A DNA stretch of 64,000 bases from Pirellulales bacterium (GTDB taxonomy: Bacteria > Planctomycetota > Planctomycetia > Pirellulales > PALSA-1355). Within the stretch, counting starts at the first letter, position 1, and each line of letters opens with the position of its first letter. Positions 17,435 through 55,292 of this stretch are shown here, one piece after another. Location of the stretch: contig JBGSYQ010000371.1 in NCBI GenBank assembly GCA_041750795.1, positions 8,253-72,252 of the forward strand. Direction: 5' to 3'. Below the pieces are notes generated by a model. The model was not told where the DNA came from. It was given only the letters and a program-made list of their open reading frames with translations, and did not search any database. The position numbers were made by a program, and so were the translations under genes.

Positions 17435-17500
17435 AACGGTCGACCGGAACGAGCATAGTGAAGCCCTTGCAGTTTGCGCCGCGCGTTCGGAGATCGAGTT

Positions 17501-18904
17501 ATGACGTGGATTCGACTGTTGTTGGTCGTATGTATTGGCAATTGCGCTGGCCAGGTCGTTGAGGCCGCGGCCAAGAACGTGGTGTTGGTCGTGGTGGACG
17601 ATCTTGGCTTTGAGCTGGGTTGTTATGGCGATGCCGCTGCGCGGACGCCCAATCTCGATCGATTGGCCGCAGACGGAGCGTTGTTCACGCACGCGTTTTG
17701 CACGACCGCCAGTTGCAGCGCCAGCCGCTCGGTGATTCTCACCGGTTTGTACAACCATGCCAACGGTCAGTATGGTCACCAGCATGCCGAGCATCACTTC
17801 AGCTCCTTCAATCGAGTAAAGTCGCTAAGCGCTCGACTTTCGGAAGCCGGCTACCGCACGGCTCGCGTGGGAAAATATCACGTAGCGCCCGAAGAGGTGT
17901 ATGCGTTCGACGAGGCCCTTGCGGGCAACGCGCGCAACGGCGTGCAAATGGCCGACAGCAGCCGCGCATTCCTCGAAGCGGACGACGCGCGGCCGTTCTT
18001 TCTCTATTTCTGCACGGCCGATCCGCATCGCGGCGCTCACGATGACGGCGGACCGTTGCGTCCCAATTTGTTTGGCAACGAGGGGCAATACCACGGCGTG
18101 ACGTCCGAGCGATTCGATCCGTCCGCACTGAGCGTCCCGCCGTTCCTGCCGGATACCGCGGCGTGCCGGGCCGAACTGGCCGAGTACTATCAATCGGTAT
18201 CGCGACTCGACCAGGGCGTTGGACGGCTGGTGCAGATGCTCAAGGAAGCGGGCCGTTGGGACGATACGCTGCTGGTGTTTCTGTCCGACAACGGAATCGC
18301 GTTTCAGGGTGCGAAGACCACGGCCTATGAGCCTGGATTGCGGCTCCCCTGCCTCGTGCGCAATCCGTACGTCGAGAAGCGCGGCGTTCAGTGCGGCGCC
18401 ATGATTACGTGGGCCGATCTCGCACCGACGATTTTGGAGTTTGCCGGCGCCAAGTTCCAGCCAAACGAAATGCACGGACGGTCATTCCTGGGCGTGCTCG
18501 AACAGACCGATCCGCCGGGTTTCGACGAAGTTTATGCATCCCACACGTTTCACGAAATCACCATGTACTATCCGATGCGTGTGGTACGCACGCGTCGCCA
18601 CAAGCTGATCTGGAACATCGCGCATCGGCTCGAGTACCCGTCGGCCTCGGATTTGCATCGCTCGTCAACCTGGCAGGAGGCGCTGGCCCACGGCCCGGAG
18701 TCGTTGTACGGCAAGCGCACGGTGGCGGCGTATCTGAATCGACCCCAGTTCGAGCTGTACGACTTAAAGGACGATCCCGACGAGGTCGACAATCTGGCAA
18801 ACGATCCGAAACACGCCGAGTTGCTTGCCAGCTTGAAAGCGAAGGTGCGCGCTTTTCAAGAGCGCACCAACGATCCCTGGATACTGAAGTGGGAGTACGA
18901 GTAG
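17501..18904 (+). CDS. S1 sulfatase (N-sulfoglucosamine sulfohydrolase-like)
   Basis: Signal peptide followed by VVLVVVDDLGFELGCYG...TPNLDRLA. Active-site motif C-S-A-S-R at 17714-17728, followed by SVILTG. Start set to ATG 17501 (MTWIRLLLVV). Confidence 0.88.
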   Translation: MTWIRLLLVVCIGNCAGQVVEAAAKNVVLVVVDDLGFELGCYGDAAARTPNLDRLAADGALFTHAFCTTASCSASRSVILTGLYNHANGQYGHQHAEHHFSSFNRVKSLSARLSEAGYRTARVGKYHVAPEEVYAFDEALAGNARNGVQMADSSRAFLEADDARPFFLYFCTADPHRGAHDDGGPLRPNLFGNEGQYHGVTSERFDPSALSVPPFLPDTAACRAELAEYYQSVSRLDQGVGRLVQMLKEAGRWDDTLLVFLSDNGIAFQGAKTTAYEPGLRLPCLVRNPYVEKRGVQCGAMITWADLAPTILEFAGAKFQPNEMHGRSFLGVLEQTDPPGFDEVYASHTFHEITMYYPMRVVRTRRHKLIWNIAHRLEYPSASDLHRSSTWQEALAHGPESLYGKRTVAAYLNRPQFELYDLKDDPDEVDNLANDPKHAELLASLKAKVRAFQERTNDPWILKWEYE

Positions 18905-26834: not shown

Positions 26835-27287
26835 TTACGGCACCATCCAGGTTACCTTGGACGCGCCCAACTCGTCGGCCAGTTCTTCGAGTGTTTCCAG
26901 TTGGGCGCGCAGCGTGCCCAACGTCTCTTCCGCCAACATGGCGGCCGGGCGATGGGCTTGCAACTGGTCAACGATGCGCTCCACCTTGGCGATGTCGCGC
27001 TGCTGATACTCGACCAGCTTGCGCAGCAGGTAGTCGAGCGCCAGATCGTGCATGTCGTAGTATTCGACCGGATAGTCGCCGACGGTCGTGGGGCCGATTT
27101 CGAGCACTTGCTCGGCGACGCGGTTGGCCAGCGCCTGCTGCTCGTCGACGATGCGCCGCAGGGCGGCCGCGGCCTTGTCATCGCCGTTGCGCGTCCAGGG
27201 CGCTGCGTAGCTCAAGTAGTTCGGCATCGAGCGCTCCAACACCGTCAGCAACTGATTGAGCGCATCGTGTATGGCGCGTCGGTCCAT
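26835..27287 (-). CDS. Hypothetical helical protein (150 aa) immediately downstream of nuoN
   Basis: Clean ORF with gene-like composition, 31 nt after the nuoN stop on the same strand. No family recognised; possibly a DinB/ferritin-like four-helix protein, but that is a guess. Confidence 0.5.
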   Translation of the reverse strand: MDRRAIHDALNQLLTVLERSMPNYLSYAAPWTRNGDDKAAAALRRIVDEQQALANRVAEQVLEIGPTTVGDYPVEYYDMHDLALDYLLRKLVEYQQRDIAKVERIVDQLQAHRPAAMLAEETLGTLRAQLETLEELADELGASKVTWMVP

Positions 27288-27318: not shown

Positions 27319-29031
27319 TTAGAAAAGTTGTGCGCTGGCGGCCAAAGTCCATTCGTTCAACTGGTTCCAGGCCAGCCCCAGCAGCACGACCGGCACCGTG
27401 ATGGCCACAATGTACGTGCCCGGGATGAAGGTGATTTCGGCGGGGCGGACCTGCTCGGGTTCGGAGTCGATCGTCATGATCTTCACGACCCGCAGATAAT
27501 AGTACAGGCTGATGGCGGTGTTCAAGCCGGCAACCACGAGCACGGTCCACAGCTTGGCCTGCACCAGCGAATAGAAAATCAATAGCTTGCCCGCGAAACC
27601 GGCCAAGGGGGGCAGGCCGATCAGGCTGATCAGGATAATGGCGAAGCAAATGGTGGTGACCGGCGCACGGCGGATCAGTCCGGCATAATCGGCGATCTCT
27701 TCGCTGTGCAGTTCGTTGCGCAACAGCGCCACGATGGCGAACGCCCCGAGGTTCATGAACAAGTAGACGCCTGCATAGAAGGCCAGCGCCGCCAACGCTT
27801 CGCGCGCGGCCACCGGATCGTGTCCGGCCAGCACCATGGCCGCCGGCACGGGCATCATCATGTAGCCGGCCTGGGCGATCGTCGAATAAGCCAACAGCCG
27901 CTTGATGTTCGTCTGGCCATAGGCCGCCAGGTTGCCGAACGTGCAAGTAATGATCGCGACGAAAGCCAGCAATCTCCAGATGAACTCGCGGGCCGGGGCG
28001 AGCGAAGCGATTCGATCGTCGCGAACCTTTGCGGCCTCCTCGGCTGCGGGCTGCACGGTGGTCTGACTGGCCAGCCTGATCGCGTTTGAGGCCGCGCTGA
28101 TCTGTTCCGCCGGCGCGACGATGGCAACCGCTGGAGGTTCGACGACGGTTTGCGGAATGGTGCCAAAGCCGATCGCCACCCGGGCCAACAGCGCCAATGC
28201 GGCGGCCTTCGATGCGACGCTCAAGAATGCGTTCACTTCGGCCGAGGCCCCTTCGAACACGTCGGGACACCAGAAATGGAACGGCACGGCCGAGAGCTTG
28301 AAAGCGATGCCCACCATCAGCATCATTCCGCCCAGGGCGAGCACCATGTACGAATCGGCGCCGATTTGTTGCTCGCCGCCGGCCGACTGCAGCAGCTCGG
28401 CCAGGCGCACCGCCATCGTGGGAATGTGGAGGCTGCCCAGCAAGCCTGCCAGCAGACTGATGCCATAGAGCATGATGCCCGCGGTTCCCGCACCATAGAC
28501 GGCGTACTTCAGCGCCGCTTCGCTGCTGGTGCGGCGGCCCTTGAGAATGCCCGCCAGCGCGAACGACGGCACGCTGGCCATCTCAACGCCCAGAAAAACC
28601 ATCAGCATCTGGTTGGCCGACGCCATCAGGCACATGCCCAACGTGGCGCCCAGCACCAGGGGGTAAACGTCCGGCGCGGCATCGCGATCTGGAATGCCGG
28701 AGATGCGCGTGAAGATGGTGAACAACACCAGGAAAAAGAACAACAGCGTGCGAAAGTAAACCGTGAACGAATCGTAGACCAGCAAGCCCGTGAAGAGCTC
28801 GGAGGATTGTGCGACTTCGTTCCAGGGTCCGGCCAGATAGAGCGCGGTGGCCGAGCCGGCCAGCGCCAGCCAGAACGCGTCGAGGCGCGCCGTCAAGCCC
28901 GGAATGCGCGTCAGCAGGATCAACACGATCGTGACGCACAGCACCAGCTCGCCTTGAAACCCGGCGGTGCTGCGGATCGTATCGGCGATCAGCGCTTGAA
29001 TCAGTTCGTAAAACGGATGTTCAGTGGGCAC
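27319..29031 (-). CDS. nuoN: NADH-quinone oxidoreductase subunit N (with an internal Ala/Pro-rich insertion)
   Basis: Antiporter-like subunit with a NuoN-type N-terminus and position at the end of the nuo array. At 570 aa it is longer than the roughly 480 aa usual. The extra segment is PQTVVEPPAVAIVAPAEQISAASNAIRLASQTTVQPAAEEAAKVRDD. Confidence 0.85.
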   Translation of the reverse strand: MPTEHPFYELIQALIADTIRSTAGFQGELVLCVTIVLILLTRIPGLTARLDAFWLALAGSATALYLAGPWNEVAQSSELFTGLLVYDSFTVYFRTLLFFFLVLFTIFTRISGIPDRDAAPDVYPLVLGATLGMCLMASANQMLMVFLGVEMASVPSFALAGILKGRRTSSEAALKYAVYGAGTAGIMLYGISLLAGLLGSLHIPTMAVRLAELLQSAGGEQQIGADSYMVLALGGMMLMVGIAFKLSAVPFHFWCPDVFEGASAEVNAFLSVASKAAALALLARVAIGFGTIPQTVVEPPAVAIVAPAEQISAASNAIRLASQTTVQPAAEEAAKVRDDRIASLAPAREFIWRLLAFVAIITCTFGNLAAYGQTNIKRLLAYSTIAQAGYMMMPVPAAMVLAGHDPVAAREALAALAFYAGVYLFMNLGAFAIVALLRNELHSEEIADYAGLIRRAPVTTICFAIILISLIGLPPLAGFAGKLLIFYSLVQAKLWTVLVVAGLNTAISLYYYLRVVKIMTIDSEPEQVRPAEITFIPGTYIVAITVPVVLLGLAWNQLNEWTLAASAQLF

Positions 29032-29040
29032 GTTGGATCG

Positions 29041-30801
29041 TTATTGCTGGGCGACGATGGCCGCCGGAGCAGGCATCGCCGCGGTGGCTTCGTCGTGGAT
29101 GCGGGGCGCCTTGACGTCTTTCGTCCAGGTGGCCAGCTCGTTGACGGTCTGGTCCACGCTGGGGGTCATGTAATTGAAGATCGCTTGCGGGTACACGCCG
29201 AATACGATCGCCAACGCCAACAGCGGCGCGGCGATCAGCACCTCGCGCGAGGTCATGGGCGTGAGCGCCTCGGGATGCGGGCCCTTGTATTCCGGACCCA
29301 GGTACACGCGCTGCAATGTCCACAAGATGTAGGCCGCGGTGATAATCACCACCGAGGCCGACACCACGGCCAGCGCGTGGCTGAAGTTCCAAACCGAGAG
29401 CGTGACGAACACTTCGCCGATGAAGCCGCACAGACCGGGCAAGCCCAGGCCGGCGAAGAAAATGCCGATCGACAAACCGGCGTACAGCGGCATCTTGGCG
29501 AACAGCCCGCCAAACTTGTCCAGGTCGCGGTGGTGTACGCGATCGTAAATCACGCCGACCAGAAAGAACATGCCCGGCGAGCTGATGCCGTGCGCGATCA
29601 TCTGGAACATGGCGCCGTTCATGCCCAGCTTCCAGGCATCGGCGTTGAACTCGTTGCCGGCCACGGCGCTCCATACGCCGATGCCCAACACGACGTAGCC
29701 CATGTGACTCACCGAGCTATAGGCCACCAGCCGCTTGAAGTCCTTCTGGGCCAGCGCGGCAAACGCGCCATACACCATGCTCACCACGCCCAAAGCGCAC
29801 ACGAAGTAGGCCAGGTCGTAGCCCGCGTCGGGGCAGATGGGATAGCAGATTCGTATGATGCCGTAGCCTCCCATTTTCAAAAGCACGCCGGCCAGGATCA
29901 TGGAGATGGGCGTCGGCGCTTCGACGTGCGCGTCGGGCAGCCAGGTATGTACCGGCACGGACGGCACTTTGATGACGAAACCGACGAGCAGCAGCAGGAA
30001 GGCCCACCATTGCAGGCTCTTGCCCCACAGGATCTTGACGTCGAAGGCTTCGGTGTGCTGACCGATTTGCTGCAGCGCCAGGATGTTGAACGTGTGGATC
30101 GGGCCAGCGTGGGCGCGCAGCTCGCCGATCCGGGCGGTCTGTTCTTCCAGGGGCAGGCTGGCGTCGATGACGTGCGCGGCGGCGAGTTGTTCGTCGGAGA
30201 GCAACTTCACGTCGCTAGCGAAGTACAGCATGAGGATGGCGATCAGCATGAACACGCTGCCCAGCAGCGTATAGAGAAAGAACTTGATGGCGGCGTATTC
30301 GCGCCGCGGCCCGCCCCACACGCCGATCAGGAAGTACATCGGCAGCAGCATCACTTCCCAGAACACGTAGAACAGGAAGAAATCGAGCGCCAGGAAAACG
30401 CCCAGCATGCCTGTCTCCAGCAGCAGAAACAGAATGCAGTAGGCGCGCACGTACTTGGTGATGGGCCAACTGGCCGCCATCGACAGCATGCTCACAAACG
30501 CCGTCAGCACGATCAGCGGAAAGCTGATGCCGTCGGTGCCCATGAAGTAGTAGATGTTGAAGCTCTCGATCCACGGCAGCGAGAATGTCTTTTGCATGTC
30601 GCTGACGCCCACTTGAAATTGCCAATCCCCTTTGCCCGGCAACAACATGATGAGCGTGAGCACGAACACCGCGGCCGTGACGACCAGCGAGAACGTCTTC
30701 ATCGCGTCGCCCTTGTCGCGCGGGAAGAACGCCAGCACCAGCGCACCCGCGGCCGGCAAAAACACAATCAGGCTCAACAGCGTTACGTAAGAAGATTCCA
30801 T
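29041..30801 (-). CDS. nuoM: NADH-quinone oxidoreductase subunit M
   Basis: 586 aa. NuoM-type N-terminus (LLSLIVFLPAAGALVLAF) and conserved WLPDAHVEAPT motif. Confidence 0.9.
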   Translation of the reverse strand: MESSYVTLLSLIVFLPAAGALVLAFFPRDKGDAMKTFSLVVTAAVFVLTLIMLLPGKGDWQFQVGVSDMQKTFSLPWIESFNIYYFMGTDGISFPLIVLTAFVSMLSMAASWPITKYVRAYCILFLLLETGMLGVFLALDFFLFYVFWEVMLLPMYFLIGVWGGPRREYAAIKFFLYTLLGSVFMLIAILMLYFASDVKLLSDEQLAAAHVIDASLPLEEQTARIGELRAHAGPIHTFNILALQQIGQHTEAFDVKILWGKSLQWWAFLLLLVGFVIKVPSVPVHTWLPDAHVEAPTPISMILAGVLLKMGGYGIIRICYPICPDAGYDLAYFVCALGVVSMVYGAFAALAQKDFKRLVAYSSVSHMGYVVLGIGVWSAVAGNEFNADAWKLGMNGAMFQMIAHGISSPGMFFLVGVIYDRVHHRDLDKFGGLFAKMPLYAGLSIGIFFAGLGLPGLCGFIGEVFVTLSVWNFSHALAVVSASVVIITAAYILWTLQRVYLGPEYKGPHPEALTPMTSREVLIAAPLLALAIVFGVYPQAIFNYMTPSVDQTVNELATWTKDVKAPRIHDEATAAMPAPAAIVAQQ

Positions 30802-30839
30802 GATCGGCTATTCCGAAGTCTCGTGGGCGTGCGCGTCGA

Positions 30840-33305
30840 TCACCCAGCCAGCGTGGACGTGTAAAGCGAAATCAGAAGAAACAGCGCCACCGTACCGATG
30901 ACGATGAACATGACATACTGCCGTATCTGGCCGGTCTCTGCGCCGCGGAGCCAAACGGCCGTGCGGAAGATCCATCGCGAAGCGCCGTTGACCAGCCCGT
31001 CGACGAAGTAGCGGTCGAAGCGGTCGTCGAGCACCGACACGCCCCGGGTCCAGAGGGCCACGCCATGGATCAGCCCGTCGATCACCACCTGGTCGAACTC
31101 GGCCACGCGTCGCGCGACGAACATCACCGGTGTCACGATAATGGCGTTGTACAACTCGTCGAAGTACCACTTGTGAATCAAAAAGTCGTAGATCGGCCGG
31201 AACTGCGCCCGCACTTCCTCGGGATTCAAAATCCGCAGACCGTAGAACACAATCGCCAGACCCAGCCCCGTCAGGCCGGTCAGCAGCGCCACCAATTCGG
31301 CCCGGGAATGGAACTGATCCAGGTGTGAGTCGTGCTCGTCGGGATGTACAACGTTCATCAACACGCCGTGGACTTCGCCGGATGTGCCCAAGGGGCGCGC
31401 CTGCTCGAGGAGCGGCTCGACGCCGAAGTTGCCCACCAGGCCGTCGATGTTAAACGTGTTGGTGCTCCAGCCCGCAGCCACCGCAAACACGGCCAGGACG
31501 ACCAGCGGCACGTACATGATGCGCGGCGACTCGTGGGCGTGATCGTATACGTGCTTGTTGCGCGGCGCACCGGCAAACGTCATGAACCACAGCCGGAACA
31601 TATAAAAGGCAGTGATTGCCGCGCCGCCGGCAGCCACGAAAAACACCCAGCCGTACATCGGATTGACCGCGCGAAACGAGAGCGCCTGGGCCAGGATCGA
31701 ATCCTTCGAATAGTGTCCGGACAAGCCCAGCGAAAACGGCACGCCGGCGCCCATGATTGCCAGGCAGCCGACCAACATGGTGTAGGCGGTCCAGGGCATT
31801 TTCTTCCGCAGCCCGCCCATCTCGGTCATCTCGTTGGTGTGACAGGCGTGGATCACCGAGCCGGAGCACATGAACAGCAAGCTCTTGAAAAACGCGTGCG
31901 TGATCAGGTGGAACATGCCGGCCGACCAGCCGCCCACGCCCAGGGCGAGCATCATGTAACCGAGTTGGCTGACGGTGGAATAGGCCAGCACGCGCTTGAT
32001 GTCGGTGGCGGTGATGGCGATGGTCGCGGCGATGAACAGCGTGATCGCGCCGATAATGGCAATGGTCAACAACACCTCGGGCACGAACACGGGAAAGAAC
32101 CGGCCCACGAGATACACGCCGGCGGCGACCATCGTGGCCGAGTGGACCAGGGCGCTGACCGGCGTGGGGCCTTCCATCGCGTCGGGCAACCAGACGTGCA
32201 GCGGAAACTGCGCGCTCTTGCCCACGCAACCGCAGAAAATGCCCAGCCCGGCGATGATCATCAGCCAATAGGCCCAGTGTCCGGGGGTGCCGGGCGCCGT
32301 GTCGGCGCGCCAGGCGGCGATTTGTTCGGCGGTGGGCTCGACCCCGGCGGCGATCTGTTCGAACGCGGCGGCTTTGATCATGCCGTCGGGCACGATGAGC
32401 TGGTGATCGGCGCCGGGGCGTACCAGGCTAAAGATGCCCGGCTGGCCGTCGACGTCGCCGAACGAAAACGTGCCCAGCGTGCCGAACAGGACCATCATGC
32501 CGATGATCATGCCGAAGTCGCCCACGCGGTTGACGATGAAGGCTTTGTTGGCCGCGTTCGAGGCGCTTTTTCGCTCGATGTAGAAGCCGATCAGAAAATA
32601 GGAACAGATGCCCACCAGTTCCCAAAAGACGAACACCATCGCCATGTTGCCGGCAATGACGATGCCCAGCATGCTGAAGCAAAACAGCGAAAGATACTGG
32701 AAGAAGCGATGGAAGCGGCCCTTGCGGTGCAGATGATGGCCATCGGCCAGACGCACCTCGTGATCCTCCACGTCGTGCAGCTCGTCGTGCATGTAGCCGA
32801 TGGCGTAGAAGTGGATGCTGGTGGCGATGAACGTCACCATCGCGAACATCAACACCGTCAGCGAATCGATGTAGTAGCCGATAGTGATCTTCAGCTCGCC
32901 GAACTTGCCGAGCGTGTACCAATCGCCGGTGATGGGCCGGACGGCCGATTCGGCGTGTGAAGCGCCGCCGTGGGCTGCCGGGTGCTCCTTGCTTCCCGCG
33001 TGACCGTCCTTTGCGCGATGGTTGTCGTCGGCGTGCTCGCCGGCCGCATGCGCGTCGCCGGTGCGGGACTCGGCCGTGATGTGCGGTTCGACGGGGCCGG
33101 GCAGCTTGTAGTTGGGCAGCCACACGAAGAACAGCGCGAAAAGCGAGAGCAAGCAAGAGGTGAGAATCGCGCCAGTGGCGACCCAGCCGGCCTTGGCGCC
33201 GGCTTTGCCCATGCGCGGTCCGAAGAACACGATCAGCGCGAACGACGCCAGCGGAATCAGCCAGGCGGCTCCCAACAACTTCGGTAAGGCAGTGATTGGA
33301 TCCAT
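30840..33305 (-). CDS. nuoL: NADH-quinone oxidoreductase subunit L (with a His-rich loop insertion and other insertions)
   Basis: 821 aa. NuoL-type N-terminus (AAWLIPLASFALIVFFG), the WLPDAMEGPTPVSALVH motif and a long C-terminal lateral-helix region. Its start overlaps the nuoK stop (TGATG). Confidence 0.9.
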   Translation of the reverse strand: MDPITALPKLLGAAWLIPLASFALIVFFGPRMGKAGAKAGWVATGAILTSCLLSLFALFFVWLPNYKLPGPVEPHITAESRTGDAHAAGEHADDNHRAKDGHAGSKEHPAAHGGASHAESAVRPITGDWYTLGKFGELKITIGYYIDSLTVLMFAMVTFIATSIHFYAIGYMHDELHDVEDHEVRLADGHHLHRKGRFHRFFQYLSLFCFSMLGIVIAGNMAMVFVFWELVGICSYFLIGFYIERKSASNAANKAFIVNRVGDFGMIIGMMVLFGTLGTFSFGDVDGQPGIFSLVRPGADHQLIVPDGMIKAAAFEQIAAGVEPTAEQIAAWRADTAPGTPGHWAYWLMIIAGLGIFCGCVGKSAQFPLHVWLPDAMEGPTPVSALVHSATMVAAGVYLVGRFFPVFVPEVLLTIAIIGAITLFIAATIAITATDIKRVLAYSTVSQLGYMMLALGVGGWSAGMFHLITHAFFKSLLFMCSGSVIHACHTNEMTEMGGLRKKMPWTAYTMLVGCLAIMGAGVPFSLGLSGHYSKDSILAQALSFRAVNPMYGWVFFVAAGGAAITAFYMFRLWFMTFAGAPRNKHVYDHAHESPRIMYVPLVVLAVFAVAAGWSTNTFNIDGLVGNFGVEPLLEQARPLGTSGEVHGVLMNVVHPDEHDSHLDQFHSRAELVALLTGLTGLGLAIVFYGLRILNPEEVRAQFRPIYDFLIHKWYFDELYNAIIVTPVMFVARRVAEFDQVVIDGLIHGVALWTRGVSVLDDRFDRYFVDGLVNGASRWIFRTAVWLRGAETGQIRQYVMFIVIGTVALFLLISLYTSTLAG

Positions 33306-33646
33306 CAGCCGCTGAGCTCGTCCGCCTGGTCAACGTCGACCGTGGAATGGTTGTTGTAGAAGTTGAGAGTGATGGCCAGTGCCACGGCGGCTTCGGCCGC
33401 GGCCAGCACGATGACGAACAAGGCCACCAGTTGCCCGTCGAGTCCGACTCCCATTACGCCCGGCCGCAGGTACTCGCTGCCAAAGGCGACGAAGTTGACG
33501 TTGGCGCCGTTGAGCACCAGCTCGATGCCCATCAGCACGCCCAGCGCGTTGCGCTTGGTGGCCATGCACACGGCGCCGGCGACAAACATGATCGCGCCGA
33601 CCACTAGGTAGTGCGAGATGCCAATCGGTTCGACAAATGGATTCAT
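33305..33646 (-). CDS. nuoK: NADH-quinone oxidoreductase subunit K
   Basis: 113 aa, three TM segments, conserved GIELVLNGANVNFV and AAAEAAV motifs. Confidence 0.9.
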   Translation of the reverse strand: MNPFVEPIGISHYLVVGAIMFVAGAVCMATKRNALGVLMGIELVLNGANVNFVAFGSEYLRPGVMGVGLDGQLVALFVIVLAAAEAAVALAITLNFYNNHSTVDVDQADELSG

Positions 33647-33695
33647 CGTAATGCTTGTAGAAGTTTTTCGAGGTTTGCCGGCGGCGGGGCGCCGA

Positions 33696-34286
33696 CTACT
33701 GGTTTTCGTGGTTGGATGCCCGTCGCTTGGGGCGGGCCAGGTAAGCTGAGCCGATCAGCACCACCAGCAAATGCACCGATATGATTTCGAACGGCAGCAA
33801 GTAGCCCGACATGCCGCCGCGCTGCGTGGCGTCGGACTCTTCCAGCTTGTCGACGCGGGCTCCCATCAGCGCCAATCCCAAGCGCGTGGCGGTGACCTGT
33901 GTCCCGGCAGGGCGCTCGGCCGGCCTTTGCCAGGCTTCGACGCTGGTGGCCGCGGCCAGCAGCACAGTCAGCAACGAACCGCCGACGAACGCCGCCAGAA
34001 TCCACTCGCCGGCCGACGTTTTCATGGTGATGAACGGCCCCTTGACCGTGAGCATCACGCCGAAGATCAACAGCACCAGCGTGCCGCCGACATAGATCAT
34101 CAACTGCATGGCGCCGACGAAATCGGCCCCGGCCAGAAAGAACAAGCCGGAGGTCGCGCCGAGCGAGAGGATCAGGTAGAACGCCATCCGCACGATGTTG
34201 TTGGAAAGCACCACCGCCACGGCAAAGATGCACGCGACCGCTGCGAACAACCAGAAGAGCAACGAGCTGAAATTGATCGCGTCCAC
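33696..34286 (-). CDS. nuoJ: NADH-quinone oxidoreductase subunit J
   Basis: 196 aa from GTG 34286, 2 nt after the nuoH stop, with GGGAGAA upstream. NuoJ-like motifs FWLFAAVACIFAVAVVLSNNIVRMAF and LLPFEIISVHLLVVLIG. Confidence 0.85.
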   Translation of the reverse strand: MDAINFSSLLFWLFAAVACIFAVAVVLSNNIVRMAFYLILSLGATSGLFFLAGADFVGAMQLMIYVGGTLVLLIFGVMLTVKGPFITMKTSAGEWILAAFVGGSLLTVLLAAATSVEAWQRPAERPAGTQVTATRLGLALMGARVDKLEESDATQRGGMSGYLLPFEIISVHLLVVLIGSAYLARPKRRASNHENQ

Positions 34287-34288
34287 GG

Positions 34289-35518
34289 CTATTCTCCCGG
34301 CCCTGCTTGTGCAATCGCCGTTGCGGCGCGCGTCGACGCCGTCTTGTCGGACTCCGCCGGCGCGACCGACGGATACGTGCCAACCGCTGGGATCAACTGC
34401 CCCTCGCGCACCGGCCCGTAGTTGTTCGGGACGACGAGACCGCCGGGAATGAAATAGGTCCAGAGCATGGCACCCAAAAACATCACCGCCGCGATCGGCG
34501 TGCAGTATTTCAAGCACGTGGTCATCACCTGGTCGATGCGCAGCCGCGGCAGCGTCCAGCGGACCCACATCATGAACGTCACGCCGAAGATGCACTTGCC
34601 AACAAAGTTCACCAGGCCAAGAAAATTGCCCAGGTAGTGCAATACCGGGTTGGTGGCGTCGGCCAGTCCCAGCCAGTGCGTGATCGGCAACGGTCCATTC
34701 CAACCGCCGAAGAACAAAATGGCCGCCAGCCCGCTCACGGCGAACATCGAGCCGTATTCGGACAGGAAGAACACGCTCCAGCGAAATCCCGAGTACTCGG
34801 TGTGGAAGCCGGCCACCAACTCGCTTTCGGCTTCGGCCAGATCGAACGGCGCGCGATTGACGCTGGCCGTGGCGCAGGTGAAGTAGACCCCAAAAATGAT
34901 GAACGTGAACGGATCGTGAAAGACGAACCACTGGGTGAACATGCCGGCCTGCATCTGGCCGATCGTCACCAGGTCCATCGTGCCGGCGATCAGCACCGGC
35001 ACCACGACGCACATCCCCAACGGCACTTCGTAGCTGACGACCTGAGCCGCCTCGCGCATGGCGCCGAACAGCGACCACTTCGAGCCGGAGGCGTAACCGG
35101 CCAGAATGACGCCGAACACTTCGAGTCCGAGCACGGCCAGAATGAAGAACACGGCAACGTTGAGCCGAATGGCGACCCAGTTGTCGGCAAAGGGGAGCGC
35201 CATATAGGCGCCGAATGAAGCGATGAAGCCGACGTACGGCGCGATCAAAAACAGCATACGGTCGGCGCCGGCCGGACGTAGATCTTCTTTGGTAACCAGC
35301 TTGATGGCGTCGGCCAGTGTTTGCAGCCAGCCGAACTTGCCGCCGATGCGCGTGGGACCGAGCCGGTCTTGAATGCGGCCCGAGACTTTACGCTCCAGCC
35401 AAATGAACACTAGCGCACTGACGGCCAGCACGTTGACCAGCAAGAAGGCGTGGACCAGCGCGGCGACCAGATAGGCCAGCCACTCGGGAGCGAGAAACTG
35501 TCGTAGGTATTCAGCCAC
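34289..35518 (-). CDS. nuoH: NADH-quinone oxidoreductase subunit H (with a C-terminal extension)
   Basis: 409 aa. NuoH motifs ERKVSGRIQDRLGPTR and APFDLAEAESELVAGFHTEYSG. Confidence 0.92.
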   Translation of the reverse strand: MAEYLRQFLAPEWLAYLVAALVHAFLLVNVLAVSALVFIWLERKVSGRIQDRLGPTRIGGKFGWLQTLADAIKLVTKEDLRPAGADRMLFLIAPYVGFIASFGAYMALPFADNWVAIRLNVAVFFILAVLGLEVFGVILAGYASGSKWSLFGAMREAAQVVSYEVPLGMCVVVPVLIAGTMDLVTIGQMQAGMFTQWFVFHDPFTFIIFGVYFTCATASVNRAPFDLAEAESELVAGFHTEYSGFRWSVFFLSEYGSMFAVSGLAAILFFGGWNGPLPITHWLGLADATNPVLHYLGNFLGLVNFVGKCIFGVTFMMWVRWTLPRLRIDQVMTTCLKYCTPIAAVMFLGAMLWTYFIPGGLVVPNNYGPVREGQLIPAVGTYPSVAPAESDKTASTRAATAIAQAGPGE

Positions 35519-35751
35519 CGCCCACAGGTCCTAAAACAAACGCTCCCTGCACCGACATTTCGCGGTAGCGCGGCACATCTGGTCGCAGGAAGATATTGTT
35601 GATGATGGTTCGAGGCCAGTTTTGCGCCGCATTAAGATCGTGAAATATCGCACAAACTACCCTCGATCGACAAGCCCCTGCCCGCCAAAAGTTTGCACGC
35701 ACGCCACGCGAACGACCTCGGCAATTCGGGATCCGACAGCGCGGCATCGAC

Positions 35752-36960
35752 CTATCGGTCGATTTCTCCCATGACGATGTCGAGCGAGCCGACGATTGCC
35801 GGCACGTCGGCAATCAGGCAGCCGCGGCACAGTTCGTGGGTGACCGACAAATTGCAGAAGGAACTGCTGCGGGCACGGGCTCGCCAGGGAATGGCGCCGC
35901 CGCCGTTGGACACGATGTAGAAGCCCATTTGGCCGCGTGGGGCCTCGGTTTCCATGTAGGCTTCGCCCTTGGGCAGCTTTTCGGTCAGCTTGACCGGCTC
36001 GCCCCAGGAGCCTGTTGACGTGCTATAGCGGTCGATGGCCTGGCGCACCAGATCGATCGACTGCATCACCTCGAGCATGCGCACGTAGAATCGGTGCCAG
36101 CAGTCGCCCAAAACGGTCTGCTTGGGAACCGGCGGATAGTCGTGATCCTTGGGATAGTGGCCGTCCTTCTCGACGATTACCTCGAAGGCATAACCGTCGT
36201 ACATCTCGGTATAGCGCTGTTCGCCATCGCGGCGCAGGTCGTGATCGACGCCACTGCCGCGCAACACGGGTCCGGTGCAGCCGTAGTCGATGGCCATCTC
36301 GGGCGAAAGCATGCCGATGCCCGCGGTGCGCCGCACGAAGATGGCGTTGCTGGTCAACAGCGTGTGATACTCACTGATCACCGGCAGCAGTTGATCGAGA
36401 AACTCTTCACACTTCTGCAGCCAACCGGCCGGCAGATCGGCCGTGGCGCCGCCGACGGTCAAGTAGCTGTAGGTCAGCCGCGCTCCGCAAGCTTCTTCGA
36501 ACAGGTCGAGAATCTTCTCGCGCTCGCGGAAGGCGTACAAGAACGGGCTGAATGTGCCCAGGTCGAGCCCGTAAGCGCCCATCCCCACCAGATGGCTGGC
36601 GATGCGGTTGAGCTCGACGATCAACACGCGCAAGTGCCGGGCTTTTTCCGGCAGTTGCAGATTCATCAGTTTTTCCACCACCAGCGCCCAGCCGAGATTC
36701 ATGTTCATCCCAGCCAGGTAGTCCATTCGATCGGTGTAAGGAATCCACTGCCGCGGCGTCAGGTTCTCACCGATCTTTTCGGCACAACGGTGCAAATAAC
36801 CGATGTGCGGCGTGGTTTCCGAGACGACTTCACCGTCGGTGCGCAACACCAGCCGCAGCACGCCGTGCGTGCTGGGATGCTGCGGACCCATGTTCACCAA
36901 CATCTCGTCGGTGCGAACGTCGAACTCGATGATCCGCGGGTCGTCTAATTGAGTGGACAT
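35752..36960 (-). CDS. nuoD: NADH-quinone oxidoreductase subunit D (49-kDa subunit)
   Basis: 402 aa. NuoD motifs MLVNMGPQHPSTHGVLRL and a C-terminal end DIVMGEIDR. Confidence 0.93.
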   Translation of the reverse strand: MSTQLDDPRIIEFDVRTDEMLVNMGPQHPSTHGVLRLVLRTDGEVVSETTPHIGYLHRCAEKIGENLTPRQWIPYTDRMDYLAGMNMNLGWALVVEKLMNLQLPEKARHLRVLIVELNRIASHLVGMGAYGLDLGTFSPFLYAFREREKILDLFEEACGARLTYSYLTVGGATADLPAGWLQKCEEFLDQLLPVISEYHTLLTSNAIFVRRTAGIGMLSPEMAIDYGCTGPVLRGSGVDHDLRRDGEQRYTEMYDGYAFEVIVEKDGHYPKDHDYPPVPKQTVLGDCWHRFYVRMLEVMQSIDLVRQAIDRYSTSTGSWGEPVKLTEKLPKGEAYMETEAPRGQMGFYIVSNGGGAIPWRARARSSSFCNLSVTHELCRGCLIADVPAIVGSLDIVMGEIDR

Positions 36961-37041
36961 GGTGGAGTTGTGGTCAGCGGCTAGGAGTCAGGGGTATCTG
37001 TCGTTGTTGATCACTGGCCTCTGGCCACTGACCAATATCTC

Positions 37042-37572
37042 TCAGCGGCCTCGGATTCCGTGGTATTCGAGGGGCATCTGGTAGTCCTTGCGCAACGGAT
37101 GGCCGACCCAGTCTTCGGGACAGAGGATGCGGCGCAGGTCGGGATGGCCGGTAAAGGTCACGCCAGATAGATCATAAACTTCGCGCTCGTGCCAATCGGC
37201 GGTGCTCCACACACCGCTGACCGAGGGAACCTCGGGCAATTCGCCCGGCTTGTCGTCCTTCCAGCGCGGCAGGATGACCTTCAGGACCAGCGTGGTCTTG
37301 CTGGGGAGGCTCGACAGATGGTAGACGACCTCGGTGTGCGGTTTCCAGTCGACCTTGACAGCCTTTTTCTCGTCCGGCTCGAAGTAATCGACGCCGCTGA
37401 TGCAGTTGAGCATGTCGAACCGCAGGTCGGGCTCGTCGCGCAGATAAGTGCAAAGTTCGACCAGCCCGTGGGGCGCCACTTCGATCCAGGGATCGATTGC
37501 CGACAGGTTTTCGCCGGTGATCTTGTCGCCGAATTTGCTTTTCAGCCGTTCGAGGAAGGCCGTGCCGCTCAT
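37042..37572 (-). CDS. nuoC: NADH-quinone oxidoreductase subunit C (30-kDa subunit)
   Basis: About 176 aa from ATG 37572. NuoC motifs WHEREVYDLSGVTFTGHPDLRRIL and PLRKDY. Confidence 0.88.
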   Translation of the reverse strand: MSGTAFLERLKSKFGDKITGENLSAIDPWIEVAPHGLVELCTYLRDEPDLRFDMLNCISGVDYFEPDEKKAVKVDWKPHTEVVYHLSSLPSKTTLVLKVILPRWKDDKPGELPEVPSVSGVWSTADWHEREVYDLSGVTFTGHPDLRRILCPEDWVGHPLRKDYQMPLEYHGIRGR

Positions 37573-37652
37573 GGTGTTGTCAATTTCCCGCGTGGGCCGC
37601 TCACAGGCGAGCGGCAAAGGTGGCTTTGGATGGTGTTTTTTCGAGGAACACG

Positions 37653-38294
37653 TCAGGGCGTCAGTGCAGGCTCTTGCTCTTGGGTGCGCGGAGGGCGCGT
37701 CAGTTGCGCGGCGCGCTCACGCGACAGGGTGCGGATCCAATCGAGATCGCCGCGCTTCCAGACATAGGCAAAGCCCACCAACAGCACGGCGAAGAACACG
37801 AGAATGTCGAAGATTGCGATCATCGCGATCGTGCTGGCCAATTGGGTCACGGCCAATTCACCCTGGAGCTGTGTCGAGAGCCCCGCGGCCGATTCGGCCA
37901 GTCCCTCGGGCAGCGGCGGCACGGCGGCGTTGTTGACGCCCATTTCGGTAAACAGTGCCGCGGCCGGTTCGGTGAGCGTGCCTTCGGCGGTGACCTTGGC
38001 CAGATTCGGATCCATCAAGTGCGTGGCCTTACCAAACACCGTGGCCCAGGGAAAGAAGAGTGCTACCTCAACGTCGAAGATGATGAACAGCAGCGCCACC
38101 ACGTAGAACCGCAGATCGAACTGCACGAAGCTGGAACCGATCGTGGGCTCGCCGCACTCGTAGACTTCCAGCTTTTCGGCGTTGGGCAACTTGGGGCGCA
38201 ACAGCCAGCCGACGACCAACGTCAGAAACAAAAACGCGAAACCGACGAAGACGAACAGGGCCAGATAGGCCACGATCGTGGTGGGAGTAGCCAT
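37653..38294 (-). CDS. nuoA: NADH-quinone oxidoreductase subunit A (expanded TM2-TM3 loop and C-terminal tail)
   Basis: 213 aa from ATG 38294. NuoA motifs YECGEP, FDLRFYVVALLFIIFDVEVALFFPWA and WKRGDLDW. There are about 55 extra residues between the second and third TM segments. Confidence 0.85.
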   Translation of the reverse strand: MATPTTIVAYLALFVFVGFAFLFLTLVVGWLLRPKLPNAEKLEVYECGEPTIGSSFVQFDLRFYVVALLFIIFDVEVALFFPWATVFGKATHLMDPNLAKVTAEGTLTEPAAALFTEMGVNNAAVPPLPEGLAESAAGLSTQLQGELAVTQLASTIAMIAIFDILVFFAVLLVGFAYVWKRGDLDWIRTLSRERAAQLTRPPRTQEQEPALTP

Positions 38295-38501
38295 GACTGC
38301 TGGTTGCTTCCGCGCGAAACCGGACTTCAGCCGGCAAAGCTCAAACAATGCGAAGCGTGCATTGTAGGAAAGACGCGTGCGTGCATGCAAGCCGGTTGCT
38401 TGCCAAGGGCGTCGAAGCGCTCCAACGAACCGAAGCCCTCCGACGAAGCGGCGCCCTCCGACGAAGCGGCACAGCGGAGCTTTGAGGCCGGGCAGCGGCC
38501 G

Positions 38502-38975
38502 CTATGGCTGAGAGTCGTCGTCGCTGGCACCGCTGCCGGCATCGCTCAGGCTGCCGGCCACCAAGGATTGCCGCCCACGAAAACCGGCGTCCAGCTCGTG
38601 CCAGTTGGTGACTTCGCTCTCGCCCAGCTTCCAGCAGAGAAACACGATCCGCTCGTCCATCTGCGAGGGAAAATCGACCAGGCCCTCGGGACCGCTCTTG
38701 GGCTCGACGCCCAAGGCGCGCAATTCCTCGACGTACTCGCCCAATTGCGCGCTGTCTTTTTCCAGTTCTTCCTCGATCTGGGCCAGTTCCTCGCTATAGG
38801 GATCGCCGACCGCGGCGTTGCGCCCAGCCGTCAAATGCGCCAATCGCTCGCGCCGCTCCATCACCTCGCGCGACAGCCGCACCAGGTCGGCAGTGATCGA
38901 GCGCACCAACGGCAATGCCGCGTTGGCCTGCTCGACCGTAAATAGCCGCTTGGGGCGATAGGGCTCGGTGGTCAT
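38502..38975 (-). CDS. DUF2203-like protein encoded between nuoI and nuoA
   Basis: 157 aa. The N-terminus KRLFTVEQANAALPLV and a central coiled segment match my recollection of the DUF2203 family. Acidic Ser/Asp tail. Confidence 0.55.
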   Translation of the reverse strand: MTTEPYRPKRLFTVEQANAALPLVRSITADLVRLSREVMERRERLAHLTAGRNAAVGDPYSEELAQIEEELEKDSAQLGEYVEELRALGVEPKSGPEGLVDFPSQMDERIVFLCWKLGESEVTNWHELDAGFRGRQSLVAGSLSDAGSGASDDDSQP

Positions 38976-38984
38976 GGTGTCGTT

Positions 38985-39024
38985 CTCGCGGTTAGTGTCA
39001 CTGGCTCGCGGTCTGTGTCACTGG
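38985..39024 (-). repeat. Tandem 20-nt direct repeat x2 spanning the nuoI stop codon
   Basis: Minus strand reads CCAGTGACACAGACCGCGAG then CCAGTGACACTAACCGCGAG (18 of 20 identical). The first copy contains the nuoI TGA (39018-39020). Confidence 0.9.
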
Positions 39025-39545
39025 TTCGGGCCGCCGTGTACCGGCTCGACGATCGTCTTCGATGCGGCCACGGCCGTGGGATTCAAGGTGGCCCTGCCCC
39101 AGGCCACGTCCACCGGCAGACGCGCGAAATCCACCAGGCAGCCATCGCGGCTATAGCAACTCAAGTCGTGCGTGGCGCCCATGAAAATGCAATCCACCGG
39201 ACAAGGCTCCACGCACAAAGCGCAGAACATGCACTTCGAGTAGTCGATCGTGAAGCCGGTGATCTTGAAGCCCTTGCCGTTGGTCACGCGCTCCTTGCCG
39301 ATGTAAATGCAATCCACCGGGCAGGCCTTGGCGCACTGATCACAGGCAATGCAAGTCGTCAGGTCGTAGCGATGAAAGCCGCGATAACGAGCCGCCACCG
39401 GCACGGGCAACTCGGGATACTCGAAATGTTCCGTAAACGTCTTGCGATCGGAGCGGTACGTGATGAGCCAGTAGCGCATCGTGATGAACATGCCGTAGGC
39501 AACCGTGTAAACGGCTTCCCAGATATCGCGCAACCATCTGCCCAT
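39018..39545 (-). CDS. nuoI: NADH-quinone oxidoreductase subunit I (2x[4Fe-4S] ferredoxin-type)
   Basis: 175 aa from ATG 39545. Two CxxCxxCxxxCP motifs ([15 protein letters not shown] and [15 protein letters not shown]) and a NuoI-like N-terminus. The longer ORF-track version (start 39920) has non-coding-like composition. Confidence 0.88.
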
Positions 39546-40445: not shown

Positions 40446-40664
40446 ATGTTGGTACTATCCCGCAAAAAGAACGAGAGTATTGTCATCAACAATGACATTA
40501 CGATCGTGGTCGTGGAGATTCGCGGCGACAAGGTTCGGCTGGGAGTCGAGGCTCCCAAAGAAGTTCCGGTCCATCGTCAGGAAGTTTACGACGCGATCCA
40601 CCGCAACGTGGGCATTAGCGAACAGAAGGACGGCGATGCCAACGGTTCCGCGGGCGAAGCTTGA
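40446..40664 (+). CDS. csrA: Carbon storage regulator / translational repressor CsrA
   Basis: 72 aa with the near-canonical CsrA sequence [54 protein letters not shown] Shine-Dalgarno 6-7 nt upstream. Confidence 0.93.
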
Positions 40665-40881: not shown

Positions 40882-40956
40882 GGCCCCGTCGTCTAGCCTG
40901 GTCTAGGACACCGGCCTTTCACGCCGATAACACGGGTTCAAATCCCGTCGGGGTCA
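40882..40956 (+). tRNA. tRNA-Glu (anticodon UUC)
   Basis: Hand-folded cloverleaf. Acceptor GGCCCCG/CGGGGTC (one G-U pair). D-arm GTCTAGCCTGGTCTAGGAC. Anticodon stem CCGGC/GCCGA with loop CTTTCAC (TTC at 40918-40920). T-arm ACGGG-TTCAAAT-CCCGT. Discriminator A; CCA is not encoded. Confidence 0.9.
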
Positions 40957-41047: not shown

Positions 41048-42097
41048 ATGCGAGCACGGGGTATCTCGGTGACGTCAGCATACGACGCGGTCCTGCTCGT
41101 TTCTTTCGGCGGACCGGAGGGCCCGGCCGACGTGCTGCCGTTTCTCGAAAACGTGCTGCGTGGCAAGAACGTGCCGCGCGAGCGAATGCTGGCCGTGGCC
41201 GAACACTACGAGCATTTCGGCGGCGTCAGTCCGCTCAACGCGCAGAATCGGGCCCTGGTTTCGGCGCTCGAGGCCGAATTGCAAGCAAGCGGTCCGAACC
41301 TGCCGGTCTACTGGGGCAATCGCAATTGGCAGCCGTTGTTGGCCGACACGCTGGCCCAAATGGCGCGCGACGGAGTGCGCCGGGCGCTGGGGTTCTTTAC
41401 CTCGGCCTATAGTTCATACTCGTCGTGCCGTCAGTATCGCGAGGACATCCAGCGTGCTGCCGCCGTCGTCGGCGCCGATGCGCCCCAGGTCGACAAGCTG
41501 CGTGCGTATTTCAACCATCCGGGCTTTATCGGCCCGTTGGTCGAGCGCGTGCGCGAAGCGCTGCAGGTCGTGCCCGCGGAGCGGCGCGCTGGTGCGCACG
41601 TCGTGTTCACTGCGCATAGCATTCCGTTGGTCATGGCTGAAACTAGCCAGTACGTGGCGCAACTGGCGGAAGCCAGTCGCCTGGTGTGCGAGTCGCTGGG
41701 CATCGTCAACCGAGAGCTGGCCTATCAAAGTCGCAGCGGGCCGCCGCAGCAACCGTGGCTCGAGCCGGACGTCCTCGACGTATTGCGGCGGCTGAGCCGC
41801 GAAGGCCGCACGCGCGACGTGGTGGTCGTGCCGATCGGCTTCCTTTCCGATCACATCGAGATTCTCTGGGATCTGGATACCGAGGCGCAGCAACTGGCTC
41901 AGCAGTTGGGGTTGAACATGGTGCGTGCGGCGACCGTGGGCAGCCATCCCGACTTTGTCGGGATGGTTCGCGAGCTCATTGAGGAACGCACTGTCGGCGC
42001 TCCGCAGCGGGCGTTGGGAACATTGGGCCCAAGCCACGACGTGTGCCCAGCCGATTGTTGCCCGCCGATGCCGAGCACGCGCCGCAGCGCCCGGTGA
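41048..42097 (+). CDS. hemH: Ferrochelatase
   Basis: 349 aa. Ferrochelatase motifs AVLLVSFGGPEG, VVFTAHSIP and PIGFLSDHIEILWDLD. C-terminal Cys cluster CPADCC. Confidence 0.9.
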   Translation: MRARGISVTSAYDAVLLVSFGGPEGPADVLPFLENVLRGKNVPRERMLAVAEHYEHFGGVSPLNAQNRALVSALEAELQASGPNLPVYWGNRNWQPLLADTLAQMARDGVRRALGFFTSAYSSYSSCRQYREDIQRAAAVVGADAPQVDKLRAYFNHPGFIGPLVERVREALQVVPAERRAGAHVVFTAHSIPLVMAETSQYVAQLAEASRLVCESLGIVNRELAYQSRSGPPQQPWLEPDVLDVLRRLSREGRTRDVVVVPIGFLSDHIEILWDLDTEAQQLAQQLGLNMVRAATVGSHPDFVGMVRELIEERTVGAPQRALGTLGPSHDVCPADCCPPMPSTRRSAR

Positions 42098-49043: not shown

Positions 49044-49144
49044 CCAGAGGTTGACGGCGCTGGTGGCGAATGCGCCTGCCTCGGGTTAGCATAGAGGTTC
49101 CCCTCCTGCGGCTGGATTGCGGAACCGGTGAAAGGCCCCTCGTC

Positions 49145-51408: not shown

Positions 51409-51503
51409 AATGACCATAATGTATTGAGTAATCGCATGAGCCACTGGCGGCGCACGCCACCGGTGGCACATTGAAAGTTTTCGCTGAAGCAGCACCAATA
51501 CCC

Positions 51504-53630: not shown

Positions 53631-53679
53631 CGGTCCGGATACAGACGGCAGCAAGGATCGCCGAGCACCGTGGGATGCG

Positions 53680-55077: not shown

Positions 55078-55292
55078 GAGGGGGTCCCGTAGCGGTGTTC
55101 AGGGGGGCCGATGTCTGGATCTAACCACGCGGCGCCTAAGGCCGCAAGCAGCATGCCCATGGTAACCACCCCGAAACCTGGCGACAGACGGGCGGCAGTT
55201 GACAGCCGCGGTGTGCCGTTCGGAGAATGGACTCGGAGCGATTGGGTGTGGAAAACGCCGGAACGGAGATTCCGGTCAACGGGAGGCGAAGC

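Follow-up and report, generated by a model that had tools for sequence, protein, structure and literature searches.

The nuoI-first layout of a complex-I-like locus without nuoB, nuoE, nuoF and nuoG is a conserved trait of the Pirellulales

The 64-kb stretch of DNA from a Pirellulales bacterium studied here (hereafter the window; all coordinates are positions within it) carries on its minus strand the genes of a complex-I-like enzyme, arranged in the order nuoI, a DUF2203 gene, nuoA, nuoC, nuoD, a spacer of 233 nucleotides (nt), nuoH-J-K-L-M-N and orf150. This locus is very probably the lineage-typical, fragmented gene set of the Pirellulales for a complex-I-like enzyme of 11 subunits that lacks NuoE, NuoF and NuoG (EFG-less). 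The initial annotation had described it as a rearranged, reduced locus; a special rearrangement of this genome is contradicted by the presence of nuoI upstream of nuoA in 62 of the 77 informative species-representative loci, and of nuoB in none. The layout is a conserved, selected trait of the order, and recurs in about 170 related Pirellulales/Planctomycetota loci.

The species-representative loci were obtained by searching a single genome of each species with NuoC as query, which returned 80 loci, all from Pirellulales or Planctomycetota, the best of them 94-95% identical. The order I-DUF2203-A is found in 33 of the 80, nuoI directly precedes nuoA in 29, and 15 carry A-C-D but have no upstream nuoI within a distance of at least 3 kb. 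Further along, nuoD and nuoH are adjacent in 31 loci and have genes inserted between them, over 0.5-6 kb, in 9, and in 22 loci nuoH is not found within at least 3 kb downstream of nuoD; the gap between nuoD and nuoH measures at least 150 nt in every relative, and that between nuoA and nuoC 9-338 nt across all 80. The same gene order is also present in 80 metagenome loci. Two further, more distant Planctomycetota contigs (L087 and L197) have I-DUF2203-A-C-D, and a Thermoguttaceae metagenome-assembled genome (MAG) has A-C-D-H-J-x-K-L-M, without B or I; clusters lacking nuoB therefore reach Thermoguttaceae and other Planctomycetota. The ratio of nonsynonymous to synonymous substitution rates (dN/dS), calculated against three relatives, is 0.02-0.23 for all eleven genes (nuoI 0.03-0.05, the DUF2203 gene 0.07-0.11, nuoN 0.14-0.23), all of which are thus under strong purifying selection. 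Recurrence of the layout and purifying selection together argue against both a private rearrangement and a decaying paralogue, the latter having been raised initially as an alternative.

The Thermoguttaceae MAG (L083-L085) shows some peculiarities of its own: an open reading frame (ORF) of 784-817 amino acids (aa) without a Pfam match lies between nuoJ and nuoK (about 14099-16453 in L083), and its NuoA, NuoL and NuoM measure 251, 861 and about 870 aa, respectively.

Gene identities in the window were assigned from ORFs with Pfam and NCBIfam profile matches, and these bear out the subunit calls and the gene order proposed initially:

nuoI, 39018..39545, minus strand: 175 aa, subunit with two [4Fe-4S] clusters, head of the cluster; Fer4 Pfam families
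DUF2203 gene, 38502..38975, minus strand: 157 aa, 42 nt after nuoI; PF09969, E 6e-36
nuoA, 37653..38294, minus strand: 213 aa; PF00507
nuoC, 37042..37572, minus strand: 176 aa; PF00329, and TIGR01961 above cut-off
nuoD, 35752..36960, minus strand: 402 aa; PF00346, and NF004739 above cut-off
D-H spacer, 35519..35751, minus strand: 233 nt, read directly from the sequence
nuoH, 34289..35518, minus strand: 409 aa, GTG start after an AGGA motif; PF00146, E 8e-105, and NF004741 above cut-off
nuoJ, 33696..34286, minus strand: 196 aa, GTG start 2 nt past the nuoH stop; NCBIfam NuoJ, E 4e-22, below cut-offs
nuoK, 33305..33646, minus strand: 113 aa; PF00420, E 3e-25
nuoL, 30840..33305, minus strand: 821 aa; PF00361 and PF00662, and NF005141 above cut-off
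nuoM, 29041..30801, minus strand: 586 aa; TIGR01972, 532 bits, above cut-off
nuoN, 27319..29031, minus strand: 570 aa; TIGR01770, E 7e-94, slightly below cut-off
orf150, 26835..27287, minus strand: 150 aa, 31 nt after nuoN

The cluster ends at 26835, beyond nuoN, owing to the conserved 150-aa ORF. At its other end, nuoI is at the head rather than between nuoH and nuoJ, as annotated at the outset, and the motif CxxCxxCxxxCP appears twice in NuoI, whose best solved relatives, in an alignment of residues 18-147, are chloroplast NdhI and E. coli NuoI. The Logan gene call for nuoA likewise gives 213 aa. The nuoJ gene is detected by NCBIfam only, with homologues after nuoH in all relatives; the 246-aa ORF that the ORF list gives at 33643-34383 is in the wrong frame. 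The best solved relative of NuoH is cyanobacterial NdhA, and NuoL was aligned to NdhF1 (6hum_F) and to Paracoccus NuoL.

The NuoD sequence retains the motifs HPSTHG and RMDYLAGM, which align with cyanobacterial NdhH and which we take to hold the quinone-ligating His and Tyr, and the Ni-Fe ligand motifs RxCGxC and DPCxxC were not found in it. This combination points to a complex-I-type enzyme and not a hydrogenase, NuoD being a quinone-site subunit rather than a hydrogenase large subunit. The membrane subunits A, H, J and K and three antiporter-like subunits (L, M and N) are all present, and for every subunit the Fpo families of NCBIfam score below the Nuo families; judged by these features, the set does not belong with group 4 [NiFe] hydrogenases, Mbx or Fpo.

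Both nuoB and the NADH-oxidizing genes nuoE/F/G are absent in cis, as had been noted initially. Only 80 nt, read directly from the sequence, separate nuoA and nuoC, so that nuoB cannot fit at that position. No NuoB motif occurs in the six frames of the window, and a NuoB hidden Markov model (HMM), which recovered real NuoB in two control loci with E 3e-62 and 3e-70, found no match in the window or in any planctomycete locus over a total of about 1.9 Mb (best E 0.36 among window and loci). No Pfam match to NuoB, NuoE, NuoF or NuoG families was obtained among about 45 window ORFs, and PF01257, PF01512, NuoG-type families and the GxGGAGF motif are all missing from the window; nor were NuoE/F/G found beside any related unit among the gene calls in the flanks of the loci fetched. 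The initial annotation had allowed for a standard conserved arrangement with nuoB just outside the window, of which the first half holds and the second does not: nuoB lies nowhere within 10 kb of nuoC, nuoH or nuoI in about 180 planctomycete loci.

Wider searches did not locate nuoB either. A protein search with Thermus Nqo6 returned only Deinococcota NuoB among the best 120 matches listed, a NuoB alignment searched against viral contigs returned six loci, all non-planctomycete, and stepping outward through NuoC cluster representatives and contigs revealed NuoB only in a Bacteroidota-like contig (L086) and in an 11-gene operon (L198). Stand-alone nuoI-DUF2203 pairs, when inspected, had no adjoining nuoB. 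In eight relatives (L011, L016, L077, L020, L033, L051, L057 and L071) the gap between nuoC and nuoD holds small ORFs. A divergent nuoB hidden in such 450-850-nt gaps was considered and rejected, the ORFs resembling, by eye, a 23S-IVS-type four-helix-bundle family or Uma2-type endonucleases; it seems that small genes of this kind tend to land in the gaps between genes of the cluster. In four contigs filed as viral in IMG/VR (L088, L089, L090 and L093; 36-38% G+C) a solitary nuoB lies directly beside an endonuclease III gene, a further case of unlinked nuoB, in an organism unrelated to that of the window.

The genes that remain together would form three transcription units, nuoI-DUF2203, nuoA-C-D and nuoH-N-orf150, rather than one operon, as indicated by three conserved promoter-like elements and by the separate placement of the units in relatives. 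Upstream regions of the relatives cannot be aligned except for short blocks, which include the following putative promoters, listed with the stand-alone pairs that share the first of them:

P1, 39649..39683, minus strand: TTGCGG, 17 nt, TATAAT; about 105 nt before the nuoI ATG
P_A, 38355..38393, minus strand: TTGCAT, 18 nt, TACAAT; upstream of nuoA, the conserved block in the DUF2203-nuoA gap
P2, 35635..35678, minus strand: 44-nt conserved block in the D-H spacer; -35 TTGTCG, 18 nt, extended -10 TGcGATATT
Stand-alone nuoI-DUF2203 pairs, L199 (contig DASZTS010000023.1) 9383-10507 and L201/L202 9418-10498: behind TTGCGG-N16/17-TATAAT

Both P1 and P_A are sigma70-like. P1 is the sole conserved block upstream of nuoI in 13 relatives, and the element also precedes the stand-alone pairs in L199 and L201. 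In one MAG (GCA_035547915.1), nuoA-C-D (L024) and nuoI-DUF2203 (L199) lie on separate contigs, each amid unrelated genes, and L201/L202 provide a second, different stand-alone context for the pair. Upstream of nuoA, a TTGnnn-N16-19-TAnAAT element (mostly TTGCAA) occurs in most loci that have DUF2203 or lack nuoI, and in only one of the 29 loci with nuoI directly before nuoA, the exception (L048) having a 308-nt gap. Such a distribution would be expected if the element were a promoter required only where nuoA is the first gene of a unit.

P2 is nearly invariant across the order (core TTGTGC[G/C]ATATTTCAC[G/A]ATCT) and is the sole conserved part of the D-H spacer, the remainder of which is random. 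In 30 loci there is a single copy per locus, lying on the sense strand 60-270 nt ahead of nuoH, and the block stays with nuoH where genes are inserted between nuoD and nuoH. Its 21-nt core, TTGTGCSATATTTCACRATCT, for which the number of chance occurrences expected in the window is 0.00, has 103 exact matches in JGI metagenomes. In 74 of the 80 matches fetched, nuoH follows 51-358 nt downstream; five of the other six contigs end 31-221 nt from the motif, and the remaining one (L098), of low coverage, continues for 748 nt past it and has no nuoH match. That P2 might be a regulon-wide operator, perhaps also marking nuoB, was considered and set aside, as the metagenome scan found the motif upstream of nuoH only. 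The block overlaps an imperfect inverted repeat, TGTGC-N6-TCAC(G/A) (TCACG in the window), which itself overlaps the putative -10 and whose geometry we take to be of CRP/FNR type, as a lead only. The spacer matched no Rfam family, and a simple scan of it gave neither a terminator-like nor a consensus promoter site.

The D-H spacer is thus an inter-unit region and a recurrent breakpoint in relatives. It had been regarded initially as the place where E-F-G would have lain, an idea that can be abandoned because nuoD abuts nuoH in L198, a compact nuoA-B-C-D-H-I-J-K-L-M-N operon without E/F/G on a 4.2-Mb contig; the spacer is consequently not the scar of an E-F-G loss, and it carries the nuoH-specific element.

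The subunits encoded in L198 have ordinary sizes and share 30-47% identity with their window counterparts, and insertions were mapped against them. As suspected from their lengths, NuoA, NuoL, NuoM and NuoN are all longer than usual: NuoA has insertions at 88-115, 121-158 (together about 70 aa in the loop between the second and third transmembrane helices) and 192-210 (C-terminal tail), NuoL at 59-114, 176-195, 299-342 and 646-664, NuoM at 198-234 in addition to a C-terminal tail, and NuoN at 293-325 and 335-352. NuoH has a poorly conserved C-terminal tail of about 48 aa. The insertions in A, H, L, M and N are lineage-wide, being found in all relatives (median NuoL length 823 aa), and most are poorly conserved, with an identity of 0.15-0.4 as opposed to 0.7-0.86 in the cores. 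The N-terminal NuoL loop 59-114 is rich in His, Asp and Glu (…GDAHAAGEHADDNHRAKDGHAGSKEHPAAHGG…) and varies in length and sequence among relatives; it could bind metal or be low-complexity filler.

Of the two additional genes, that for DUF2203 matches its Pfam family over the complete profile (1-122, all 122 positions) with 124 bits, the gathering score being 24. Its position behind nuoI and ahead of the nuoA promoter-like element indicates that it belongs to the nuoI unit. It occupies the same position in L087 and L197, lineages whose NuoC is only 61-62% identical, and stays beside nuoI even where the two lie apart from the remaining nuo genes; it is absent from Lacipirellulaceae/Bythopirellula/Adhaeretor-like loci (29/80) and hence not indispensable. 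The AlphaFold2 model (predicted local distance difference test, pLDDT, 82) shows a helical hairpin and a small beta domain, and the family has an invariant DFP...CWK...WH patch with one invariant Cys. No PDB sequence or Foldseek match was obtained, and a Gre/DksA-like coiled-coil factor was rejected on the basis of an hhalign comparison with E. coli GreA (probability 0.1). Since the nuoI-DUF2203 unit has its own promoter-like element and persists in distant lineages and when isolated, DUF2203 might be a lineage-specific accessory subunit or assembly factor acting with NuoI, for example at the donor docking site, a speculative role that we consider rather unlikely.

The orf150 homologue follows nuoN on the same strand after 16-123 nt in all eight loci with enough sequence, and orf150 is likely the last gene of the nuoH-N unit. 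Its product contains no Cys, has no NCBIfam family and gives a four-helix bundle in a single-sequence AlphaFold2 model (pLDDT 69.5) with no significant PDB fold match. Its one Pfam match, to Ferritin, is weak (E 0.0017); identification as a ferritin was rejected, this match being sub-threshold and the fold matches non-significant. Speculatively, orf150 may encode a second accessory protein, belonging to the membrane-arm unit.

These data suggest a scenario in which an ancestral operon of the nuoABCDHIJKLMN type was broken into independent transcription units, three of which would lie side by side here while a fourth, with nuoB (encoding the cluster N2 subunit), would be elsewhere in the genome. 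By homology, NuoI, NuoB, NuoC and NuoD would form the electron path to quinone. Without NuoEFG, NADH could not be oxidized by the known route, and the initial remark that an EFG-less enzyme needs another electron input holds; electrons would enter at NuoI from a non-NADH donor, reduced ferredoxin or a similar low-potential carrier being the usual proposal, and travel by way of the clusters in NuoI and NuoB until they reach quinone at the NuoD/NuoH site, with protons presumably pumped via NuoH/A/J/K and the three antiporter-like subunits NuoL/M/N.

The place of nuoB in this scenario can be weighed against a lineage truly without NuoB, in which cluster N2 would be lacking or replaced. Such a lineage would accord with the lack of NuoB around all units and with the fact that no Pirellulales NuoB sequence was retrieved, but it is extremely improbable: all known members of the complex I/group-4 hydrogenase superfamily possess NuoB or a homologue, NuoD retains motifs of the N2-facing quinone site, and neither DUF2203, with one invariant Cys, nor orf150, with none, could bind the cluster. 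Moreover, the RAST annotation of a Stieleria genome (also Pirellulales), as tabulated in the supplement of PMC11588811, lists a single set of chains A, B, C, D, H, I, L, M and N, and no E, F or G among them. The universality of NuoB, the retained quinone-site motifs and this chain B lead us to infer that nuoB is unlinked and located elsewhere, and with three movable units already produced a fourth would be unsurprising. The Stieleria annotation also bears on another explanation, that the locus encodes a functional second isoform which exists beside a canonical 14-gene nuo operon and borrows NuoB, and perhaps NuoEFG, from it. Precedents are available in Thermogutta terrifontis, for which the supplement of PMC5673643 lists a canonical nuoA-N operon (THTE_0767-0782), in Syntrophobacter, for which a single set of nuoEFG is reported alongside duplicate copies of the other genes (PMC4453560), and in the Thermoguttaceae MAG with its B-less, I-less cluster. 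Nevertheless, the single set in Stieleria, the absence of a second nuo locus from the window and the fetched flanks, and the identification of an 11-gene EFG-less operon (L198) as the nearest canonical relative make a second isoform unlikely.

A division into three units also has to be set against a single operon running from the nuoI promoter (about 39650) to 26835, with the spacer as a site of RNA processing or attenuation and the conserved block as an RNA element. All genes are on the same strand with short gaps, the spacer lacks a terminator-like site in the simple scan, and the block is always on the sense strand, in line with such an arrangement. However, the block stays with nuoH in loci whose nuoH-N has no nuoD upstream, which leaves no nuo transcript from upstream to be processed; its sequence reads as correctly spaced -35 and extended -10 hexamers; and the sequence downstream of it is unconserved, shows no covariation and has no match in Rfam. 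One operon is accordingly a quite improbable reading, and the single transcript from about 39650 to 27319 envisaged initially is unlikely given the three promoter-like elements and the separation of the units in relatives. Some observations do weigh against a fragmented, EFG-less set as the explanation of the locus. The simple consensus scan did not pick up the promoter-like elements. NuoL, NuoM and NuoH score above curated NCBIfam cut-offs, but NuoI (best matches TIGR01971 and NF004537, 84 against 113 bits), NuoA, NuoJ and NuoN fall under the equivalog cut-offs, which indicates a divergent lineage. The absence of NuoE/F/G is shown for the 64-kb window and the flanks of relatives, and nuoB has been found neither for this organism nor for any relative of the same layout; the case for its existence is built on one annotated Pirellulales genome from the literature and on NuoB being universal in the family. 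Finally, with the canonical operon of Thermogutta terrifontis within the order, this genome may possess a second, NADH-linked operon.

Upstream of nuoI, and divergent from it, lie a CsrA-like gene (about 40446-40664, plus strand), a tRNA gene (40882-40956, plus strand) and a ferrochelatase gene (41048-42097, plus strand); in many relatives CsrA and ferrochelatase are found at this position too, also beside stand-alone nuoI-DUF2203 pairs. The rest of the window has ordinary planctomycete content, comprising sulfatases, a MoxR/DUF58/VWA set, DsbD and the ferrochelatase. A MoxR-type cluster at 49070-56627 (plus strand) encodes a MoxR AAA ATPase, DUF58, DUF4129 and VWA/HEAT proteins and is interrupted by a sulfatase gene on the opposite strand (53680-55077); a second sulfatase gene lies at 17474-18904.

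The main value of these results is corrective, in that a locus which looks odd beside that of E. coli turns out to be the normal arrangement of a whole bacterial order and not a one-off. EFG-less complex-I-like enzymes and split nuo clusters are already known and common (PMC12361115). Particular to the present case are the order-wide first position of nuoI, the presumably unlinked nuoB, the three units with their upstream elements, the loop insertions and the two co-travelling genes, and no description of this order-wide pattern was found in the searchable literature. The locus is a clear example of the break-up of an ancestral respiratory operon into units with independent placement, and their conserved upstream elements could be used to study stoichiometric expression after operon fragmentation. 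The most interesting loose ends are the strongly conserved, nuoH-specific 21-nt element, a candidate promoter or operator, and the nuoI-DUF2203 pair, as the tie to nuoI provides a first functional lead for DUF2203. If DUF2203 did dock the donor, the donor question of 11-subunit enzymes would become testable in planctomycetes.

Compared with known systems, the locus shares its homologous core of Q-module and membrane subunits with the canonical 13/14-gene operons of E. coli, Thermus thermophilus and Thermogutta terrifontis. These operons, in contrast, include NuoEFG, have nuoB between A and C and nuoI between H and J, form a single operon and encode shorter A, L, M and N. Gene order as such is not required for assembly in E. 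coli, according to Oppermann et al. 2022 as cited in PMC12361115. The complex I of Campylobacterota is similar in being encoded by a split nuo cluster and having a non-NADH donor: its genes form two operons in which NuoE/F are replaced, with flavodoxin or ferredoxin as donor (PMC11238625). In that complex, nuoB and nuoG remain in cis and other genes have taken the E/F positions; the D-H spacer of the window holds no equivalent.

Cyanobacterial/chloroplast NDH-1, a ferredoxin:plastoquinone oxidoreductase, likewise has no NuoEFG. Five subunits were tested, and for all but NuoC (NuoD, NuoH, NuoI and NuoL) it supplies the best solved relative, a mild hint, from sequence similarity, of a ferredoxin-type donor. 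The NDH-1 genes are dispersed over several small units, ndhC-K-J and ndhA-I-G-E among them, but cyanobacteria have ndhK, the NuoB equivalent, between ndhC and ndhJ, where in the window A and C are adjacent without B. Identity of the window subunits to cyanobacterial NDH-1 is only moderate, and the organism of the window is a non-photosynthetic planctomycete. NDH-1 uses lineage-specific extra subunits for donor docking (PMC11238625), and NdhS/NdhV beside NdhI would parallel the role proposed for DUF2203. Among the scanned ORFs of at least 90 aa there was no homologue of NdhS, NdhV, NdhO, NdhM or NdhN and no match to the NdhL-NdhS and NdhV Pfam families, a scan in which subunits below 90 aa were not specifically targeted.

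The closest counterpart is the widespread class of 11-subunit complex-I-like enzymes, whose donor is described as unresolved, ferredoxin or several docking partners having been proposed (PMC11238625). The window shares with this class ten subunit families, the absence of NuoE/F/G (within the 64 kb), a quinone-reducing-type NuoD, three antiporter-like subunits and an electron donor that is probably not NADH. It differs in its organization, with nuoI first, nuoB presumably unlinked and at least three probable units instead of one A-B-C-D-H-I-J-K-L-M-N operon, in the lineage-wide insertions of A, H, L, M and N, and in the additional DUF2203 and orf150 genes. The nearest non-planctomycete NuoC representatives with a named source are from Bacteroidota. 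Most likely, the ancestor already had an 11-gene, EFG-less operon, from which nuoI and nuoB moved out.

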